From positions 1 through 64,000 of IMG/VR virus record IMGVR_UViG_3300012984_000001: a stretch of 64,000 bases of DNA; one strand, 5' to 3'. The notes beneath the pieces are model-generated. The model searched no databases. It was not told the DNA's origin and was given only the letters and a program-made list of their open reading frames with translations. How positions within the stretch are numbered: the first letter of the stretch is position 1; every line of letters starts with the position of its first letter. Shown one piece after another: positions 1-47,272 of the stretch. A program made the position numbers and the translations under genes. The DNA is from a virus.

Positions 1-272
1 CAGACATTGTTACTGAGCACGTATTGGCATTTGCCGAAGAAAATCCAGAAAAATATATTGCTTACACAGAAGACCCTGGAATCAAAATGAAAGGAGTTAT
101 CAAAAGCGCGCTTGCTTCTGGAGATTTGATTTACAGCAATTATCGTTGGTTGAACGCAAATCGAGAAGTTATACTCGAAGTTTCTAAAAATCAAGATGAA
201 ATGGATGAAATGGTCAGATATTTTGAAGGAGGAATCGGAAGAACTTACTATGAGTTCCTTGTAAATAAATAA
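1..272 (+). CDS. C-terminal part of a phage protein (start lies before the window)
   Basis: Reading frame is open from the window edge to TAA at 270-272; function not recognisable. Confidence 0.6.
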   Translation, partial: DIVTEHVLAFAEENPEKYIAYTEDPGIKMKGVIKSALASGDLIYSNYRWLNANREVILEVSKNQDEMDEMVRYFEGGIGRTYYEFLVNK

Positions 273-286
273 TTTTTAAAAAACAC

Positions 287-318
287 TTGTTTCTTAAAAT
301 AAAAAATACCTATATTTG
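287..318 (+). promoter_or_regulatory. Bacteroidota sigma70-type promoter for leader 1 / tRNA block 1
   Basis: -7 element TATATTTG at 311-318 with a TTG-containing -33 region upstream. Confidence 0.7.
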
Positions 319-341
319 TAACTGAAAATAAACATTAAAAA

Positions 342-416
342 ATGCTAAGTATAAACACGATAAATATGATTGCTAGAGTTGGGGATAACTTCCCAAGCAA
401 GAGGTTTATGGTGTAA
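342..416 (+). CDS. Attenuator leader peptide 1 (MLSINTINMIARVGDNFPSKRFMV)
   Basis: 24-aa ORF with A-rich start context between promoter and terminator; codons 4-16 are all read by block-1 tRNAs; contains antiterminator strand AAGAGGTTT (399-407). Confidence 0.85.
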   Translation: MLSINTINMIARVGDNFPSKRFMV

Positions 417-438
417 ATTAAACAAATTACAAATATAT

Positions 439-475
439 AAAAGCCTCTTAATAAATTTAAGAGGCTTTTTGTTTT
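439..475 (+). terminator. Attenuator terminator 1
   Basis: AAAAGCCTCTTAA/TTAAGAGGCTTTT hairpin plus T-rich tail ending at the first base before tRNA-Ala. Confidence 0.85.
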
Positions 476-547
476 GGGAGATTCGTATAGTGGTTATTAC
501 AATAGTTTTGCAAACTATAAACACGGTTTCGATTACCGTATCCTCCA
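476..547 (+). tRNA. tRNA-Ala(TGC)
   Basis: Anticodon arm ATAGT-TTTGCAA-ACTAT, G3.U70 pair, TTCGATT T-loop. Confidence 0.85.
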
Positions 548-560
548 CAGAAATAAATAT

Positions 561-633
561 TCGTGTGTATTTCAGTTGGTAGAAAGCAATCCTGATAAGA
601 TTGTATGCGAAGGTTCAAGTCCTTCCGCACGAA
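561..633 (+). tRNA. tRNA-Ile(GAT)
   Basis: Cloverleaf; CAATC-CTGATAA-GATTG. Confidence 0.9.
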
Positions 634-639
634 CAAATT

Positions 640-711
640 GCGAGTATGGTGTAAAGGCTAACATAGGAGACTTCCAATCTTTTGATAACAGTTCGAGTCT
701 GTTTATTCGCT
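640..711 (+). tRNA. tRNA-Gly(TCC)
   Basis: Cloverleaf; GGAGA-CTTCCAA-TCTTT; U73. Confidence 0.9.
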
Positions 712-715
712 CAAT

Positions 716-787
716 GGTCTATTTGTGTAATGGTAGCAGTACTGGCTTGTCACGCCAGAGGCGAGAGTTCGATTCTCTCATAGACCG
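716..787 (+). tRNA. tRNA-Asp(GTC)
   Basis: Cloverleaf; CTGGC-TTGTCAC-GCCAG; G73. Confidence 0.9.
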
Positions 788-791
788 CAAT

Positions 792-862
792 GGCTTAGGT
801 AGTTTAATGGTAAAACACTTCTCTTGTAAAGAAGATACGGGGTTCGAATCCCACGTAAGCCT
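792..862 (+). tRNA. tRNA-Thr(TGT)
   Basis: CTTCT-CTTGTAA-AGAAG anticodon arm; imperfect T/acceptor stems. Confidence 0.8.
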
Positions 863-866
863 CAAT

Positions 867-937
867 ACCTTGTTTGCATAATGGAAGTGCCGATGTTTTA
901 CATGCATCTGGCGGTAGTTCGATTCTACCACAAGGTA
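867..937 (+). tRNA. tRNA-Val(TAC)
   Basis: Cloverleaf; GATGT-TTTACAT-GCATC. Confidence 0.9.
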
Positions 938-943
938 CAAATT

Positions 944-1016
944 GTCGGTATAGCATAAATGGAAATGCAGAACACTTCTAATGTTCCGATTGGCAGTTCG
1001 AATCTGTCTATCGACT
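944..1016 (+). tRNA. tRNA-Arg(TCT)
   Basis: Cloverleaf; GAACA-CTTCTAA-TGTTC. Confidence 0.9.
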
Positions 1017-1025
1017 CAATTAAAT

Positions 1026-1098
1026 CGCCTCGTAGCTCAATCGGTGGAGCAGCGCACTCATAATGCGAAGGTCAAGAGTTCGAAACTCTTCGAGGCAA
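1026..1098 (+). tRNA. tRNA(CAT): elongator Met or Ile2 (lysidine)
   Basis: Cloverleaf, loop CTCATAA, C1.A72 mismatch but no GGG/CCC anticodon stem; identity not resolvable by eye. Confidence 0.85.
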
Positions 1099-1103
1099 CA
1101 AAA

Positions 1104-1176
1104 GATTTCATAGCTTTAATGGTAGAGCGTCCGACTGTTAATCGGGTGGTTGAAGGTTCGAATCCTTCTGAAATCG
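1104..1176 (+). tRNA. tRNA-Asn(GTT)
   Basis: Cloverleaf; TCCGA-CTGTTAA-TCGGG; G73. Confidence 0.9.
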
Positions 1177-1185
1177 CAAAATAAA

Positions 1186-1216
1186 TTTGGTAATCCAAAA
1201 TTTTATTTTAAATTTG
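1186..1216 (+). promoter_or_regulatory. Internal promoter for tRNA-fMet / leader 2 / tRNA block 2
   Basis: TTTG (~1186) and TAAATTTG (1209-1216) match the Bacteroidota -33/-7 consensus. Confidence 0.7.
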
Positions 1217-1219
1217 CAT

Positions 1220-1292
1220 TGTGAGATAGAGCAGTTGGTAGCTCGTGTGGCTCATAACCATAAGGTCACGGGTTCGAATCCCGTTCTCGCAA
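1220..1292 (+). tRNA. tRNA-fMet-like (CAT)
   Basis: Initiator-type D-arm GAGC-AGTTGGTA-GCTC (A11-U24), TGTGG-CTCATAA-CCATA. Confidence 0.85.
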
Positions 1293-1306
1293 CTAAAAAA
1301 TACATT

Positions 1307-1378
1307 ATGAAAAATTTAAGTTTTTGTTTATCTTATTGGTTGTCGTTTAAATACGATACGGGATTTGATATGCAATAA
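1307..1378 (+). CDS. Attenuator leader peptide 2 (MKNLSFCLSYWLSFKYDTGFDMQ)
   Basis: 23-aa ORF; codons 4-14 are all read by block-2 tRNAs; antiterminator strand ACGGGATT (1358-1365). Confidence 0.88.
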   Translation: MKNLSFCLSYWLSFKYDTGFDMQ

Positions 1379-1406
1379 TTAAAAAAAATAATTGTATTTA
1401 AAATTT

Positions 1407-1437
1407 AATCCCGTTCGAAAGTTCGGGATTTTTTTTT
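1407..1437 (+). terminator. Attenuator terminator 2
   Basis: AATCCCG/CGGGATT hairpin plus long T run, 3 nt before tRNA-Tyr. Confidence 0.85.
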
Positions 1438-1440
1438 ATT

Positions 1441-1509
1441 GGGAGTAATTCTTCGGAGAAGCCAGCTCTGTAAAAGCTCAAATAGTAGGTTCGATTCCTT
1501 CTACTCCCA
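1441..1509 (+). tRNA. tRNA-Tyr(GTA), atypically short
   Basis: GGGAGTA/TACTCCC acceptor, AGCT-CTGTAAA-AGCT, tiny D-arm, no long variable arm. Confidence 0.75.
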
Positions 1510-1512
1510 CTT

Positions 1513-1585
1513 AGGCGTATGGTGAAATGGTAAGCACAACAGTTTTAAGAGCTGTCAATTGCGAGTTCGAGTCTCGCTACGCCCA
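1513..1585 (+). tRNA. tRNA-Leu(TAA), short variable loop
   Basis: ACAGT-TTTAAGA-GCTGT; GCGAG-TTCGAGT-CTCGC. Confidence 0.85.
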
Positions 1586-1591
1586 CAAAAA

Positions 1592-1678
1592 GGAAGGACA
1601 AGCCAATTGGTGGTGGCCGCAGTCTTGAAAACTGTTAGGAGTTAATGACTCGTGTGGGTTCGACTCCCACTTCTTCCG
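1592..1678 (+). tRNA. tRNA-Ser(TGA)
   Basis: GCAGT-CTTGAAA-ACTGT, long variable arm, G73. Confidence 0.9.
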
Positions 1679-1683
1679 CAAAT

Positions 1684-1766
1684 AGAAAGTGAAACACATA
1701 GGATGTGTGCCTCCCTGCTAAGGAGTGCGAGGGTAAAACCTTTAGTTTCGAATACTACTCTTTCTG
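1684..1766 (+). tRNA. tRNA-Ser(GCT)
   Basis: CTCC-CTGCTAA-GGAG, long variable arm, G73; atypical D-arm. Confidence 0.8.
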
Positions 1767-1770
1767 CAAT

Positions 1771-1841
1771 GCTTCTCAACGTAGGTTGTGTCAATCGGTC
1801 TCCAAAACCGTATTGTAAAGGTTCGAATCCTTTGAGTTGCG
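1771..1841 (+). tRNA. tRNA-Trp(CCA)
   Basis: CGGT-CTCCAAA-ACCG; good T-arm; weak acceptor and D stems. Confidence 0.75.
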
Positions 1842-1846
1842 CTATT

Positions 1847-1919
1847 GGGAATATGGCAGATAAGGTTATTGCGGAGGACTGAAAATCCTTAGGAGTTGGG
1901 TCGGTACCAACTGTTCCCA
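1847..1919 (+). tRNA. tRNA-Phe(GAA)
   Basis: GAGGA-CTGAAAA-TCCTT; non-canonical T-loop GTCGGTA. Confidence 0.85.
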
Positions 1920-1924
1920 CAAAT

Positions 1925-1995
1925 ATCAGGAATGCTGATGGTGAAGCGAATGGATTGCAAACTCATTTTTATCGGTTCGATTCCGATTCCTGATT
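1925..1995 (+). tRNA. tRNA-Cys(GCA)
   Basis: Loop TTGCAAA, U73 discriminator, ATCAGGA/TCCTGAT acceptor. Confidence 0.8.
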
Positions 1996-2004
1996 CTAAA
2001 ATAG

Positions 2005-2076
2005 TGACTCATAAGCGATTCGAACGCCTATCCTCGGATTCGTAGTCCGAAATTCTATCCATTGAAATAATGAGCC
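2005..2076 (-). tRNA. tRNA-Arg(ACG)
   Basis: Minus-strand cloverleaf; TCGGA-CTACGAA-TCCGA. Confidence 0.9.
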
Positions 2077-2079
2077 TTA

Positions 2080-2164
2080 TGGTGCGAAGTGTGGGAGTCG
2101 AACCCACAAAGCTACAATATTCTAAGTATTGCCACTATTCCTTTCGTTGTTAAGCCAACTTCGC
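2080..2164 (-). tRNA. tRNA-Leu(TAG)
   Basis: CAATA-CTTAGAA-TATTG; encoded CCA; atypical D region. Confidence 0.8.
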
Positions 2165-2169
2165 TTTAG

Positions 2170-2242
2170 GGTGTAATGTGAGAATCGAACTCACGTTTTT
2201 TGCTTCACAGGCAAACGACTTAACCGTTAGTCCAAAAACACC
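2170..2242 (-). tRNA. tRNA-His(GTG)
   Basis: TTTGC-CTGTGAA-GCAAA; G-1/C73. Confidence 0.9.
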
Positions 2243-2247
2243 ATTTG

Positions 2248-2319
2248 TAGGAGTATCAAGAATCGAACTTGAATAACTAGAGTCAAAGTCTAGTATAATA
2301 ACCATTATATCATACTCCA
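2248..2319 (-). tRNA. tRNA-Gln(TTG)
   Basis: CTAGA-CTTTGAC-TCTAG. Confidence 0.9.
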
Positions 2320-2324
2320 ATTTG

Positions 2325-2396
2325 CATTCCGTATGGGAATCGAACCCATGTCTCCTGATAGAAAGTCAGACGTGTTAACCACTTCACTAACGGAAC
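2325..2396 (-). tRNA. tRNA-Glu(TTC)
   Basis: TCTGA-CTTTCTA-TCAGG. Confidence 0.9.
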
Positions 2397-2402
2397 TTTT
2401 TG

Positions 2403-2473
2403 TCTAATAGTCAGGATTTGAACCTGAGTACTCCTCCTTCCAAGGGAGGCATGAAACCGTGCTTCGCTACTAG
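2403..2473 (-). tRNA. tRNA-Pro(TGG)
   Basis: CCTCC-CTTGGAA-GGAGG; C1-G72, A73. Confidence 0.85.
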
Positions 2474-2477
2474 AAAT

Positions 2478-2509
2478 AAAAAAAACCACTCTGATTAAGA
2501 GTGGTTTTT
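2478..2509 (-). terminator. Attenuator terminator 3
   Basis: AAAAACCACTCT/AGAGTGGTTTTT hairpin with U8 tail on the minus strand, 4 nt before tRNA-Pro. Confidence 0.85.
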
Positions 2510-2532
2510 AAGTTTTTATATTGATAACAACA

Positions 2533-2604
2533 CTATACAGAAATTCCACCCATAAGTAAATTATGTTGCGGAAGGCGTTCAATATTATTTTTAATAGTTT
2601 TCAT
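2533..2604 (-). CDS. Attenuator leader peptide 3 (MKTIKNNIERLPQHNLLMGGISV)
   Basis: 23-aa ORF; codons 9-14 GAA CGC CTT CCG CAA CAT match the six block-3 tRNAs; antiterminator strand GGGTGG (2546-2551). Confidence 0.9.
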   Translation of the reverse strand: MKTIKNNIERLPQHNLLMGGISV

Positions 2605-2608
2605 GTTG

Positions 2609-2616
2609 CAAACATA
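2609..2616 (-). promoter_or_regulatory. -7 promoter element for leader 3 / tRNA block 3
   Basis: TATGTTTG on minus strand 4 nt upstream of the leader ATG (near-leaderless transcript). Confidence 0.65.
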
Positions 2617-2670
2617 TAAAATATTTTTTATATATACACTATGATTTAAATATTATATTACATTAAACTT

Positions 2671-2700
2671 TTGTTGTTCTTTATTTTTTATCTTTGTTTT
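2671..2700 (+). promoter_or_regulatory. Promoter of tail/structural operon
   Basis: TATCTTTG at 2689-2696; TTGTTGTT...TATCTTTGTTTT also found at 52813-52840. Confidence 0.6.
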
Positions 2701-2713
2701 AAAATAATTAAAG

Positions 2714-3451
2714 ATGATTTCTATCAACAAATTCCGAAATACAATACTGTTCTTGCTTGAAAAGAATAATCGTGGTTTTTTGGGGCCACAAGTTCTTGAT
2801 TCATTTGTTGACTTGGCTCAAATTGAAATTTTTGAGAATCTATTTTTTCAATACAACAAATGGCTAAACAATCAATCAAGACATTTAGCAAATACAGAGT
2901 TTGCGGATATTCCAAAAAACATTAAAGAACAGATTGATTATTTTTCTGAATACTCAACGACAGGGAATTTCACGTATGATGCTCCAAATGATGTATGGAA
3001 ATACAACGGAACTGATATTTTATACAGAACAGAAGGATTGTCGTTGGTAAATTCTTCTGGAAAAAAAGTAGATATTGAGGAAGTTTCTAAAGGTTCCGCA
3101 TGGAATAACATGATAAACTCAAAAATAAATCCACCATCTGTGACATTTCCTATTTACACAAAAATAAAAGATGGGTACCGTGTTGCTCCAAAAGCAACTA
3201 CAGGATATAGCGTTGAATTATTTTTCATAAGAAGACCAAAGGCTCCAAAATGGACTTATATCGAAGATGCAAACGGAAATCCATTGTTTAATGCTGGAGC
3301 GTCCGATAGACAAGATATAGAATTGGATGAAAGTTTGTTTTATCCGCTTGTAATGAAAGTAATGTCGTTTTGTGGACTTTCAATACAAGAATCAGAAATA
3401 TTAACCGCTGCAGCAAATGCAGAAATAGCAATCGATCAGAAGCAATCATAA
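2714..3451 (+). CDS. Virion structural protein (tail ring/adaptor-like)
   Basis: 245 aa, first gene of the structural operon; resembles ring proteins of Bacteroidota podoviruses; assignment by recall and synteny. Confidence 0.6.
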   Translation: MISINKFRNTILFLLEKNNRGFLGPQVLDSFVDLAQIEIFENLFFQYNKWLNNQSRHLANTEFADIPKNIKEQIDYFSEYSTTGNFTYDAPNDVWKYNGTDILYRTEGLSLVNSSGKKVDIEEVSKGSAWNNMINSKINPPSVTFPIYTKIKDGYRVAPKATTGYSVELFFIRRPKAPKWTYIEDANGNPLFNAGASDRQDIELDESLFYPLVMKVMSFCGLSIQESEILTAAANAEIAIDQKQS

Positions 3452-3454
3452 GTT

Positions 3455-4378
3455 ATGAGTTCAATGAATCCTGCCGAATATTATGAAAATGAAGACAACC
3501 ATGGTAGTTATCAATACGTAAACCTAGAGGAGTTGGTTATAAATTTCTTGACTGACTGGACTGGTGACGGAAAAATTTTAAATAAAGTGTCTCGTGCAAA
3601 AGTTATAGCCAAATTCAAGCAAGGGATAAAAAAGTTTAACATGAACGCATTGCGCGCGAAAAAAACTGTAGAACTAGAACTTGGAGACACTTTAGATATT
3701 ATTATGCCCCCGGATTATCTCAATTGGGTGAGAATTTCTTATGTGAACCCAGAAACAGGTGAATTGATGGGTTTATCCAGAAATGACAAAATCCCTATGG
3801 GAAGTGCGTACTTACAAGATGATAAAGCTGATATTCTTTTCGATGATGAAGGATTTATTTTAGAAGGAACTACGTATTATGATGAATTAAATGACACAAT
3901 AAACTTAAACAAAAGAACTTTTTTAGGTTATATGGATTGTGGATGCATCGGAAATTATGTCGGATATTGGGGTGGTTACGGGTATGATTATTCGTATATG
4001 CCGACTCCTCCTCCTACAAATTTTCTTCTTGACCCGTCTCAAAATGCAAACGGTTATTTCAACATAGACCAAGAACAAGGCAGAATTCATTTTAGTTCAG
4101 ATAATGCGAGTAGAGTTATAATGCTTGACTATATCTCAGATGGTTTGCAACACGCAAAAGATACTGATGTAAAAGTGATAAAACTTGCAGAAGAGGCTCT
4201 TTATAATTTCGTTAACTACGAATTAATGAAGACTCTGAATAATGTTCATATGTATGAGAAACGAGATGCTAGAAGAGCATGGGAAGCGGAATACAAAAAT
4301 GCTAAAATAGCAATGATGGATATTAAAATTGACGACGTTATGTTGTTTTTAAACGCTAAGAATCGATGGGTACATTAA
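3455..4378 (+). CDS. Virion structural protein (tail tubular/ring-like)
   Basis: 307 aa; PPDYLNWVRIS and LDYISDG motifs; directly precedes the stabilisation protein. Confidence 0.6.
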   Translation: MSSMNPAEYYENEDNHGSYQYVNLEELVINFLTDWTGDGKILNKVSRAKVIAKFKQGIKKFNMNALRAKKTVELELGDTLDIIMPPDYLNWVRISYVNPETGELMGLSRNDKIPMGSAYLQDDKADILFDDEGFILEGTTYYDELNDTINLNKRTFLGYMDCGCIGNYVGYWGGYGYDYSYMPTPPPTNFLLDPSQNANGYFNIDQEQGRIHFSSDNASRVIMLDYISDGLQHAKDTDVKVIKLAEEALYNFVNYELMKTLNNVHMYEKRDARRAWEAEYKNAKIAMMDIKIDDVMLFLNAKNRWVH

Positions 4379-7300
4379 AATTTCAAAACTTTTTCTCTAA
4401 GGGTACCGTAAATAAAGATTCTGACGAACGTTTCGTTAGTCCTGATGAATTGATAGATGCGGAAAACTTTTTCGTTACTACGGTCGACTCTTCTGATATG
4501 GGAGTTGGAAAAAATGCATTAGGAAATGCAAAAAAATCCAATTACAACATTGTTGGGGGTAAAAACTATGGAACCGGAGTTGACAGCACCAATAATTTTA
4601 TCTACAACATCGTAAAAGGTACACTGTACGATTACATCATTGAATACAACACTGAAACTGGATTATCTGAAATTGTGTTGCAAAGCACAACCGGAACTCG
4701 ATTAAACCTAAAAGAAGGAGAACGCGTTATTAATGTTGATGTTATTTTCAGTGACAAGCCATATAATCCGGTTACTAAAGAAGGTGGAAATTTACTAAGA
4801 TTCGATGGAGATAGCAATCCTCCAAGAATCATAAATATAAATCGATCAAAAACATTTGGTATCGATGGATTTACCGCAGATGAAATAATGCTTATCAAAG
4901 CACCCCCATTATATCCTCCTACGGTTGTACAAAAAAATACATTAACGGCATACCAAAACTTTATGACGGATAAATTCATCTCATTTGCTTATAGATATAA
5001 GTACAAAGATGGATATTATTCAGCTATTTCCAGTGGACAAGAATATACGTTTACTCCTGGAAGATTTGAATTAGATTTTGCTTCTTTTGAAAATAAGGGA
5101 ATGCTGAATATATTCAATGCATGTGATATTTCGTTCAATACCGGACCACGAGAAGTTGTTGCTATAGACCTTTTATTTAGAGAAAGCAACAACACAGTTT
5201 TTTATTTAATTGACCAATATTTCAAAACGGAGGAATCTTGGGCCGACAATACTGTTCAAAGCATTCAGTTCGATAATAGCAAAGTTTATACTCCGCTTCC
5301 AGAAGACCAATTCTACAGAGTATGCGATTATATTCCTGATAATTGTGTAGCTTCTACAGTGGCTTCAAATAGAGCTTTTATTGCCAATTTTAGACAAGGA
5401 CATGATTTGATTGACAAGAATGGAGATAATGTGGTCATGGATTATACTGTTGATTTGATTTCGAATGACTTCAATTCTACAGATGCCGTTGTAACCCAAA
5501 TAAATTCAACTTCTCCTTTTGACGGCAGTACAATTGTAAAAGGACGTGTGAGATTTAATTTTACGGATGCTATTTTAACCAAAGGTTCCGTAATATTTTT
5601 GACTTTTAACATCAATTCTTCGTTTATAGCAGACGGAACTCCATATACTGATGTATTTCAAAATACGTATAATTTTATTTTAGAGGAAGATTACAGCAAT
5701 ATTGAAGATTTGATTTTAGATACTGCGAATGGATTTAAGACAAATTTGGAAGGATATTTCAGTGAATACTTAAAGACTACATCATTGCAAATTCCTGCTG
5801 ATACAATTATTCCGTTTACTTTTAATGGCTTTTTGCTTTCGGTTGTAAATGCAAATACTTTTGATGTTACATTGCCTACAGTCAGATATGAAATAGACAA
5901 ATCTCCAGACCCTAATGTATTCGCAAATGAATATTTCAAAGATGTTTCAACTGTAGGTTCGTCAAATACTATTGCAAGCAAAAAATCAATGAAATCTTAT
6001 AGAAGTTATGAGGTTTGCATGGTTTACTTGGATGATAAGAATAGGCCGACTACCGCTTTGACAAGTGCTACAAATACAGTTTTTGTGCCAATTCAAAATA
6101 GTATAAAGCAAAACATCATAAACGTACATATTCCGACAACTCAAAAACCGCCTGTAGGATTCAATACATATCGTTTTGGAATTAAGGAGAACCGAACGCC
6201 TTATGAAGAGATTTATGCAAGTGTTTTTTATAAAGACGGTATTTATAGATGGGTAAGACTAGACGGAGGCAATAAAAATAAAGCATCTGAGGGAGATATG
6301 CTTTTGGTAAAAAAAGATATATCAACTAGCATGTCAACTGTTGTTCAGACAAAAGTTTTGGAATTACGATTTCAAGAGGAAGATTTCTTGACCAACAACA
6401 AAGATGAAAATGGAAACCTTATTGTAGAGTCTGCAGGAACTTATATGAAAATAAAACCTGAGAATTTCACAATTGATTATTCTGACGGGGAGTTTATTTA
6501 TTTGGAAGATAATAGTGCTGTAAAAAATGATAGGCCAATTTCTGTTTTGGGAGGAGATGCTTTTTCTAAGCCAACAGCTACTTCTGGAGTTTTTACGGAT
6601 GTTCCTATATTGCAAGGGTCTGAATTGGTAATCAATCTTCATAGTGATTACCACAGGGAAAGCCAGCAGAATGATTATAATAAAAGCTTTATAGTTAATG
6701 ATAATTATGACAATTTTGAAGACTATTACAATGCGGAACTCGCAGGGATAGCTTTTATAGGAACTTCTGGGCAAGAATTCAATAAGTCAATAATTAGAGA
6801 CCCAGCAGGAACAGGGCAAATATTTTTAAGAATTGAAGGAACCGCTGCCGGAAATGGGACAACTAGACGAGGATTTTTAGATGCGAATTTGACTTTGCGT
6901 TCTGTGAGTGGATTTTTCGTATTTGAAACTCTCGGAAAAGAGGTAAACAACAACTTATTTTATCTGACTCCTGATGTATTTACTATAGTAGATGGAGAGC
7001 ATCAATTTGTTGACCATGTTTTGGCGAAAACTTTTAATTGCTATGCACAAGGAAATGGAGTCGAAAGCCACCAAATAAGAGATGCATTCAATGAAAAGTA
7101 TGTGAGTATCGATTTTACCCCTACAGCAGTAAATAAAGATGGATACAGGCTTGAAAATAGATATGCGGATATTACGTATTCCGGCATATTTAATTCTTCT
7201 ACAAACATAAATAGGTTGAATGAATTCAATTTATACACAGCTAATTTTAAAGACGACATTGACAAGTCTTATGGTCCTATTTATAAAATAAAAGGCATTG

Positions 7301-46899: not shown

Positions 46900-46972
46900 T
46901 TCCACATAGCTCAGTCGGTAGAGCAAATGACTCATAATCATTAGGTCACAGGTTCAATCCCTGTTGTGGAAA
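46900..46972 (+). tRNA. tRNA(CAT): Met or Ile2
   Basis: Cloverleaf; AATGA-CTCATAA-TCATT. Confidence 0.88.
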
Positions 46973-46973
46973 C

Positions 46974-47272
46974 AATTAAGTTGTTAAGTTCTTTAATTTT
47001 TTGTTTGGACGGGAGTTCGACTCTCCCCGACTCCACGAATCGAGTCCGTGTAAAGTGTTCGATGGTTTGGCACACCGATATACAAAGTGCTATTTTTGGG
47101 GTCGCCTGGTTTTGACAGCAAAGCGAATTAGAAGAAATAGACTTAATTAAAAATAACTGCAAAAGTTATAAACCTTTTTGGAAACGAAGCAAAACTTGCT
47201 GCGTAATCAACGAAATTTGTGATAGCGAAAATATCACTAAACAGCCGGAGGAGATTACTTCAAATCCGGTTT
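46974..47272 (+). ncRNA. ssrA: Circularly permuted (two-piece) tmRNA
   Basis: T-arm plus 3' acceptor strand CGACTCC-A (47011-47035) lies upstream of 5' strand GGGGTCG (47098); G3.U70; tag frame 47159-47206 AKVINLFGNEAKLAA*. Confidence 0.88.

Follow-up and report, generated by a model that had tools for sequence, protein, structure and literature searches.

The closest described systems to the locus reported here are the enterobacterial attenuators (thrL for Thr/Ile, ilvL for Ile/Leu/Val, as well as trpL, hisL, pheL and leuL), which combine a short leader enriched in regulatory codons with an intrinsic terminator, an antiterminator strand that lies just past the regulatory codons and overlaps the terminator 5' arm, an upstream sequestering hairpin, and the rule that a ribosome at the stop codon favours termination. 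The same parts are found in the transfer RNA (tRNA) region of a virus, IMG/VR record IMGVR_UViG_3300012984_000001, within the 64,000 nucleotides (nt) analyzed here and called the window, the sequestering hairpin being predicted by folding in leaders 1 and 3 only, and the stop codon rule in all three. In this region three blocks of tRNA genes each follow a short leader open reading frame (ORF) whose codons list the tRNAs of that block, and we consider it likely that they represent three ribosome-mediated leader-peptide attenuators, one per block, that place tRNA supply under negative feedback. Unlike the enterobacterial leaders, in which one to three amino acids are repeated in tandem, the phage leaders precede tRNA genes rather than biosynthetic genes and list six to nine codon classes per run (up to 13 in the related phage L032), mostly once or twice. 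Their products would feed back directly on the sensor, and they are phage-borne, with leaderless or Shine-Dalgarno-less messenger RNAs (mRNAs) and Bacteroidota-type promoters. The best non-tRNA Rfam matches at leader 3 (2476-2606, minus strand) were Phe_leader with 31.2 bits and Thr_leader with 21.1 bits, both far below the cut-off of 55 bits.

T-box riboswitches likewise sense tRNA status and switch a terminator/antiterminator pair, but they bind one uncharged tRNA through a specifier codon, require no translation and control synthetase or amino acid genes, whereas many specificities are listed per ORF here. The trn operon of Anabaena sp. PCC 7120 is an accessory tRNA array, too; it is horizontally mobile, stays off by default and is switched on under impaired translation. 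This bacterial megaplasmid locus is controlled at the promoter level by direct repeats and the repressor TrcR, and neither of the two papers on the array mentions a leader peptide or an attenuator (PMC8421152, PMC10272220). T5 and T4 are also lytic phages with many clustered tRNA genes among promoters and small ORFs; the T5 tRNA region, however, yielded no codon-matched leaders in the same pipeline. Small ORFs in the T5 tRNA region may have been a subject of older work on this phage.

The window covers the first 64 kilobases of a complete virus record of 75,694 base pairs (bp) with direct terminal repeats. Among cultured phages, Flavobacterium podophages come closest, with 37.5 % identity in one structural protein, so that the host assignment to Flavobacterium is only approximate. 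Querying the DNA of GenBank phages with the entire region returned tRNA-sized matches only and no close relative. Combining ARAGORN and Rfam, we located 23 tRNA genes within 476-2476, four of which required a lowered ARAGORN threshold, while Leu-UAG was assigned by eye from its anticodon loop CTTAGAA with Rfam support of 38.9 bits. An earlier note on this DNA had counted 22 tRNAs in three blocks. The blocks of nine, seven and six genes hold, and the cluster total rises to 23 with an extra CAU tRNA that ends 13 nt before the ATG of leader 2. The 19 amino acids it had counted as covered are indeed served, a Lys tRNA being the one absent from the 23 found. Downstream of the leaders there are tRNA genes only, with no amino acid biosynthesis, transport or synthetase genes. 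The features are as follows, with promoters read from the sequence, leaders obtained by ORF reading, tRNA blocks called by ARAGORN/Rfam, and terminators 1 and 3 supported by a terminator scan as well as by folding.

287-318, plus strand: promoter 1, consisting of TTG (287-289), a 21-nt spacer and the Bacteroidota -7 box TATATTTG (311-318)
342-416, plus strand: leader ORF 1, 24 codons and stop
351-389, plus strand: codon run 1, codons 4-16, reading Ile Asn Thr Ile Asn Met Ile Ala Arg(AGA) Val Gly Asp Asn
398-407, plus strand: antiterminator strand 1, codons 19-22, pairing with GCCTCTT of the terminator 5' arm, -9.1 kcal/mol
439-475, plus strand: intrinsic terminator 1 (hairpin 439-469), a 13-bp stem, 5-nt loop and T tract, adjoining tRNA-Ala
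476-1177, plus strand: tRNA block 1, nine tRNAs (Ala-UGC, Ile-GAU, Gly-UCC, Asp-GUC, Thr-UGU, Val-UAC, Arg-UCU, CAU, Asn-GUU)
1187-1216, plus strand: promoter-like sequence TTG-N19-TAAATTTG, ending 3 nt before the extra CAU tRNA
1220-1293, plus strand: extra CAU tRNA, elongator-Met-like, upstream of attenuator 2, 67.4 bits
1307-1378, plus strand: leader ORF 2, 23 codons and stop
1316-1348, plus strand: codon run 2, codons 4-14, reading Leu(TTA) Ser(AGT) Phe Cys Leu Ser(TCT) Tyr Trp Leu(TTG) Ser(TCG) Phe
1357-1366, plus strand: antiterminator strand 2, codons 17-20, core CGGGA, -9.6 kcal/mol
1407-1437, plus strand: intrinsic terminator 2, an AATCCCG/CGGGATT stem (1407-1430) followed by T9, from folding only, the scan tool being unable to call a loop of this length
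1441-1996, plus strand: tRNA block 2, seven tRNAs (Tyr-GUA, Leu-UAA, Ser-UGA, Ser-GCU, Trp-CCA, Phe-GAA, Cys-GCA)
2476-2004, minus strand: tRNA block 3, six tRNAs (Pro-UGG, Glu-UUC, Gln-UUG, His-GUG, Leu-UAG, Arg-ACG)
2509-2477, minus strand: intrinsic terminator 3 (hairpin 2509-2481), a 12-bp stem, 5-nt loop and T tract
2545-2553, minus strand: antiterminator strand 3, codons 18-20, GGGTGG, -9.4 kcal/mol, 0/300 shuffles
2563-2580, minus strand: codon run 3, codons 9-14, reading Glu Arg(CGC) Leu(CTT) Pro Gln His
2604-2533, minus strand: leader ORF 3, 23 codons and stop, probably on a leaderless mRNA
2609-2616, minus strand: promoter 3, -7 box TATGTTTG, ending 4 nt before the ATG, with the same geometry in relatives

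The correspondence between codon runs and tRNA blocks is complete. All nine tRNAs of block 1, all seven of block 2 and all six of block 3, the last once each, are named in the leader of their own block, and no run names a tRNA belonging to another block. Amino acid families that are split between tRNAs sort by codon box, with AGA set apart from CGC, TTR from CTT, and AGT, which pairs with Ser-GCU, from TCT and TCG, which pair with Ser-UGA. The earlier note had made both observations, and for the sorting of isoacceptors, which it had described for Arg and Leu, the serine boxes can now be added. As leader 1 contains both ATG and ATA, the match holds whichever CAU tRNA is Met or Ile2, and run 2 ends at codon 14 because codon 15 specifies Lys, for which there is no phage tRNA. 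To put the match against chance, the whole genome was decoded in six frames and searched for maximal runs readable by the tRNAs of one block only. Full coverage of a block was reached by 1 of 34,281 runs for block 1, 1 of 30,484 for block 2 and 1 of 23,268 for block 3, and in each case this sole run is the leader immediately upstream of the block. The six-frame control uses real sequence of the same composition, which matters because the blocks split the genetic code by the first codon letter; the codon-block match is thus confirmed to lie far beyond chance.

The first-letter split itself is worth describing. Block 2 serves codons with T in the first position together with AGY, block 3 those beginning with C together with GAR, and block 1 those beginning with A or G, a division that coincides with position-37 modification classes, for instance the UNN codons served by MiaA. 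If the tRNAs of a block all depend on a single position-37 modification, this could slow their decoding in common. The grouping is a tendency and not a rule, as relatives group their tRNAs differently.

Between each leader and its block lies a G+C-rich terminator hairpin that starts 26-30 nt past the leader stop and whose T tract adjoins the first tRNA of the block. A strand near the end of each leader can pair with the 5' arm of this hairpin, and the predicted antiterminator duplexes are comparable in energy to the terminator cores (-11.9, -8.1 and -8.6 kcal/mol for terminators 1 to 3). Such a strand had been proposed for codons 18-22 in the earlier note, and it was found at codons 19-22, 17-20 and 18-20; in leader 3 it has codons 11-12 or the terminator 5' arm as alternative partners. 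The internal hairpin that the same note had placed upstream of this strand in every leader was recovered by folding in leaders 1 and 3 and is missing from leader 2. Including relatives, the antiterminator strand lies 2-6 codons before the stop in 14/14 leaders tested, and the spacer from stop to hairpin measures 25-30 nt in these 14 except for two leaders of the cultured phage phi38:1, with 6 and 50 nt.

The position of the strand relative to a translating ribosome was assessed by folding transcripts under a 29-nt ribosome mask moved codon by codon. Full-length minimum-energy folding with the mask mostly retained the terminator and was uninformative, so transcripts cut just before the terminator 3' arm were folded instead. 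Under these conditions the antiterminator is predicted only with the A site at codons 2-16 of leader 1, 2-14 of leader 2 and 7-15 of leader 3, and never with the ribosome at later codons or at the stop. Set against the codon runs at codons 4-16, 4-14 and 9-14, this means that each run ends where productive stalling is predicted to end, and the run of leader 3 starts only past those positions at which a stalled ribosome would leave the sequestering hairpin intact. In the folds without a ribosome, leaders 1 and 3 pair their run with the antiterminator strand, leaving the terminator arm free. The stall-window pattern holds in 19/20 leaders. Across the 20, block-cognate codons occupy 159 of 232 positions inside the predicted ON window and 52 of 211 positions elsewhere, counts that do not represent independent events, as these leaders are related to one another.

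Relatives were collected by way of a neighbouring structural gene and by a promoter-plus-start pattern. In most of the IMG/VR relatives recovered by way of the structural gene, that gene has no neighbouring tRNAs, which indicates that the tRNA module is accessory. All 17 pattern matches with an ORF of 20-29 codons continue into a terminator and then a tRNA block, with 54-64 nt between stop and block in most and 138 nt in Gundel_1, whereas long ORFs matching the same promoter pattern, which served as a control, have no tRNAs downstream. An ORF of 20-30 codons occupies the same place in 20 leader-block pairs, among them pairs from cultured Cellulophaga and Tenacibaculum phages. The earlier note had asked whether leader codons co-vary with block content and had called for a permutation test. 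Across these pairs, whose leaders are related to one another so that the counts are not independent events, 125/127 block tRNAs have a codon in the leader of their own block, the remaining two being spurious low-threshold calls, whereas 20,000 shuffled pairings averaged 78.6, peaked at 107 and never reached the observed value.

The individual cases follow the same line. L009 and L010 have a block with Leu-UAG and without Trp, and their leader contains CTA/CTT and no TGG; in L034, Phe, Cys and Trp are missing from block and leader alike; and the leader of L038, which precedes a block of Tyr, Asn, Gln, Glu and Phe, consists mostly of those codons. L032 combines an eight-tRNA mixed block with a fourteen-tRNA block, each fully named by its own leader; the fourteen-tRNA block groups Trp with Ile, Asn, Asp and Ala, and Trp is present in its leader. 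In phi38:1 and Calle_1, Asn is placed in the Tyr/Ser/Trp/Phe/Cys block and the leader carries four Asn codons, the phi38:1 version having no Leu in its run. Leader 3 of L002 contains the same six codon classes as that of the window in another order (His-Leu-Arg-Gln-Gln-Gln-Glu-Pro versus Glu-Arg-Leu-Pro-Gln-His), and the comparison of the two sequences indicates that codon composition is conserved and not the peptide. Five homologues of leader 3 show concerted changes in the leader strand and the two terminator arms, with GGGTGG matched by CCAC.../...GTGG, and GAGGA or GGGGAG by CCTCCTC/GGGAGG. Cultured phages from three families share the design, namely the Cellulophaga phages phi38:1 and Calle_1 (Pervagoviridae) and phi19:1 and phi10:1 (Assiduviridae), and the Tenacibaculum phage Gundel_1 (Pachyviridae). 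The crAss-like phage cr60_1 has two tRNAs only at the matched locus and is uninformative. As a further observation in L002, a nine-codon mini-ORF at 4640-4710, whose start is 95 % identical to that of leader 3 in the window, is followed by a hairpin without T tract and then by Lys-UUU and Ile-GAU; four of its codons specify Lys and one Ile, and it could be a leader remnant or a minimal leader.

The -7 boxes are of the TAnnTTTG type, and the same box precedes the leaders of the relatives. In front of leader 1 it lies 24 nt upstream of the ATG, followed by an A-rich 5' untranslated region of about 20 nt, while its position 4 nt before the ATG of leader 3 implies a leaderless mRNA there. The earlier note had assumed a promoter directly before the leader of each block, which stands for blocks 1 and 3; for leader 2 the box precedes the extra CAU tRNA, so that block 2 would be reached from that promoter or by read-through of block 1. 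A scan for sigma-70 promoters, the wrong model for Bacteroidota, found 11 sites against 9.4 expected from shuffles and thus performed no better than chance. In phi38:1 (L021), the three leaders share a near-identical promoter module of about 45 nt that ends in TATATTTACAAT directly before the ATG, at about 2195-2238, 3655-3699 and 4898-4942, and its leaders A and C are annotated only as the hypothetical proteins gp066 and gp070.

Parts, geometry, codon match and co-variation, all of them in silico, thus support the trp/his/ilv-type architecture recognized in the earlier note. Transcription would begin at a Bacteroidota-type promoter, and a ribosome would translate the leader of 23-24 codons. 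If all codons of the run are decoded fast, the ribosome would reach the last codons or the stop and cover the strand at codons 17-22, the terminator hairpin would form and RNA polymerase would stop just before the first tRNA. If the tRNA for one of the run codons is scarce, the ribosome would stall within the run and melt the upstream hairpin, freeing the strand at codons 17-22 to pair with the terminator 5' arm, and the polymerase would then enter the block in which the gene of the missing tRNA lies. Once made, these tRNAs would end the stall, so that the products of each block would feed back negatively on its transcription. We infer from the sequences that the leaders are translated and that read-through depends on stalling; candidates for the natural trigger, likewise a matter of inference, are host tRNAs poorly suited to the demand of the phage, a loss of host tRNAs as infection reaches its late stage, and tRNA cleavage by a host anticodon nuclease.

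Several points weigh against leader-peptide attenuation at this locus. Most codons occur only once or twice per run, which would make a weak sensor of mild shortage, and the codon match assumes that tRNAs with U34 read entire four-codon boxes (GCT, GTT, CTT, TCT). The CAU tRNAs could be Met, Ile2 or initiator-like, and BLAST against phage records did not distinguish Met from Ile2. Leader 2 has neither an anti-antiterminator hairpin nor a promoter of its own, and its antiterminator forms in the folds even without a ribosome. The antiterminators are short, with 6-9 bp, and the terminator usually wins in full-length minimum-energy folds, so that the model depends on co-transcriptional kinetics. 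Among the relatives, some leaders carry a few non-cognate codons in the run, and leader 1 of L002 names seven tRNAs absent from its block. We read the latter exception as a probable recent rearrangement, since BLAST reveals the L002 locus as a mosaic in which window positions 557-1650 are replaced by about 290 nt carrying a truncated copy of a leader start.

One alternative, a narrower form of the attenuation model along the lines of the earlier note, accepts the attenuators as real and assigns them a role selected specifically for counter-defence, whereby a nuclease of the PrrC, RloC, PARIS or retron type cuts a tRNA, the stalled ribosome reports the loss and the block is replaced. Codons that mostly occur once or twice per run would suit catastrophic loss better than graded starvation, and phage tRNAs of T5 and mycobacteriophages reportedly rescue infection from tRNA-cleaving defences. 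However, no sequence feature ties the system to nucleases, neither RtcB nor the RNA ligase families of tRNA repair were found in the phage, and the sensor spans 22 tRNAs and 19 amino acids, far beyond the targets of any known nuclease. General supply-and-demand control accounts for the same facts, and we therefore regard a specifically defensive role as rather doubtful.

It appears quite improbable that the leaders are translated and sense decoding speed while the output is an altered processing or stability of the tRNA precursor, or that the terminators are constitutive insulators. The terminator hairpins do sit at the 5' end of the first tRNA, and RNase P would have to cut them off every read-through transcript, but neither a terminator-complementary leader strand that is conserved in position and co-varies with both arms nor a predicted ON window that ends where the run ends would be required for such an output. 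We give very little credence to an untranslated RNA that senses tRNAs directly in a T-box-like manner, or to small peptides that are themselves functional, as nothing speaks for either beyond the presence of codons for the tRNAs. No T-box covariance model or other riboswitch match was found at E values up to 1 in window positions 1-3000, six to thirteen specificities per run would be unreadable by one specifier loop, and frame, start and stop spacing are conserved; the changed order of residues in leader 3 of L002, at constant codon composition, argues against a functional peptide. That T-rich or C-rich stretches merely mimic the first-letter split, as the T-rich leader 2 and the codon sets of blocks 2 and 3 might suggest, is practically discounted and was rejected by the six-frame scan, which found no other full-coverage run in sequence of the same composition, and by the shuffled pairings; in relatives whose blocks differ in make-up, the leaders differ accordingly.

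Leaving these alternatives aside and returning to the tRNA genes regulated in the attenuation model, several of them have unusual structures. Tyr-GUA (1441-1510, 70 nt) and Leu-UAA (1513-1586, 74 nt) do not have the extended variable arm that Tyr and Leu tRNAs of bacteria should carry, the Tyr tRNA of the relative L009 measuring 82 nt. Leu-UAG (2080-2164) has an oversized D arm, and the CAU tRNA at 1026 has an initiator-like C1xA72 mismatch. Blocks 2 and 3 converge, leaving 7 nt between their ends (1996-2004) and no terminator there, as is also the case in L002 (5279/5288). Read-through between them would give antisense tRNA transcripts, and the two blocks might thus interfere with each other. 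Outside the cluster, a third CAU tRNA is located at 46900-46972 (Rfam, 73.6 bits), and just past it, at 46987-47206, lies a permuted two-piece transfer-messenger RNA (tmRNA; RF04321, 63.7 bits versus a cut-off of 47 bits), the tag of which ends in Ala-Lys-Leu-Ala-Ala according to ARAGORN. A phage with predicted stall-sensing leaders also encodes a ribosome-rescue RNA.

The mechanism class is known; what appears new is its target, the tRNA genes, and the form of a codon inventory. In the full-text literature within reach, which leaves out most subscription journals and the older T5 work, we found no account of leader-peptide attenuators before tRNA genes. The paper on the phi38:1 infection transcriptome does not discuss control of the phage tRNAs, and infection RNA-seq data for this phage exist (PMC5335546). 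As the same design occurs in cultured phages with laboratory hosts, the attenuation model is directly testable.

If the model is true, the locus would be the first case of tRNA genes under leader-peptide attenuation and the first in which tRNA supply directly regulates itself by way of the ribosome. The model would extend classical attenuation to Bacteroidota and to leaderless or Shine-Dalgarno-free mRNAs, and offer compact multi-codon sensors of tRNA availability for synthetic biology. It bears on the long-standing question of why phages carry tRNA genes and how these are expressed, with a regulatory logic that is legible in the sequence, in which each block would be switched by the decoding speed of the codons it serves. 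More tentatively, and with appreciable reservation, the codon-inventory attenuators may represent a modular, horizontally mobile cassette of sensor plus tRNAs that many Bacteroidota phages use. It would let every tRNA block respond on its own, by negative feedback, to the pool of charged tRNAs, and would act as a general counter to tRNA removal by whatever process of host or phage, including removal by anticodon nucleases. In that case the leaders would be readable records of the tRNAs that each phage expects to lose.

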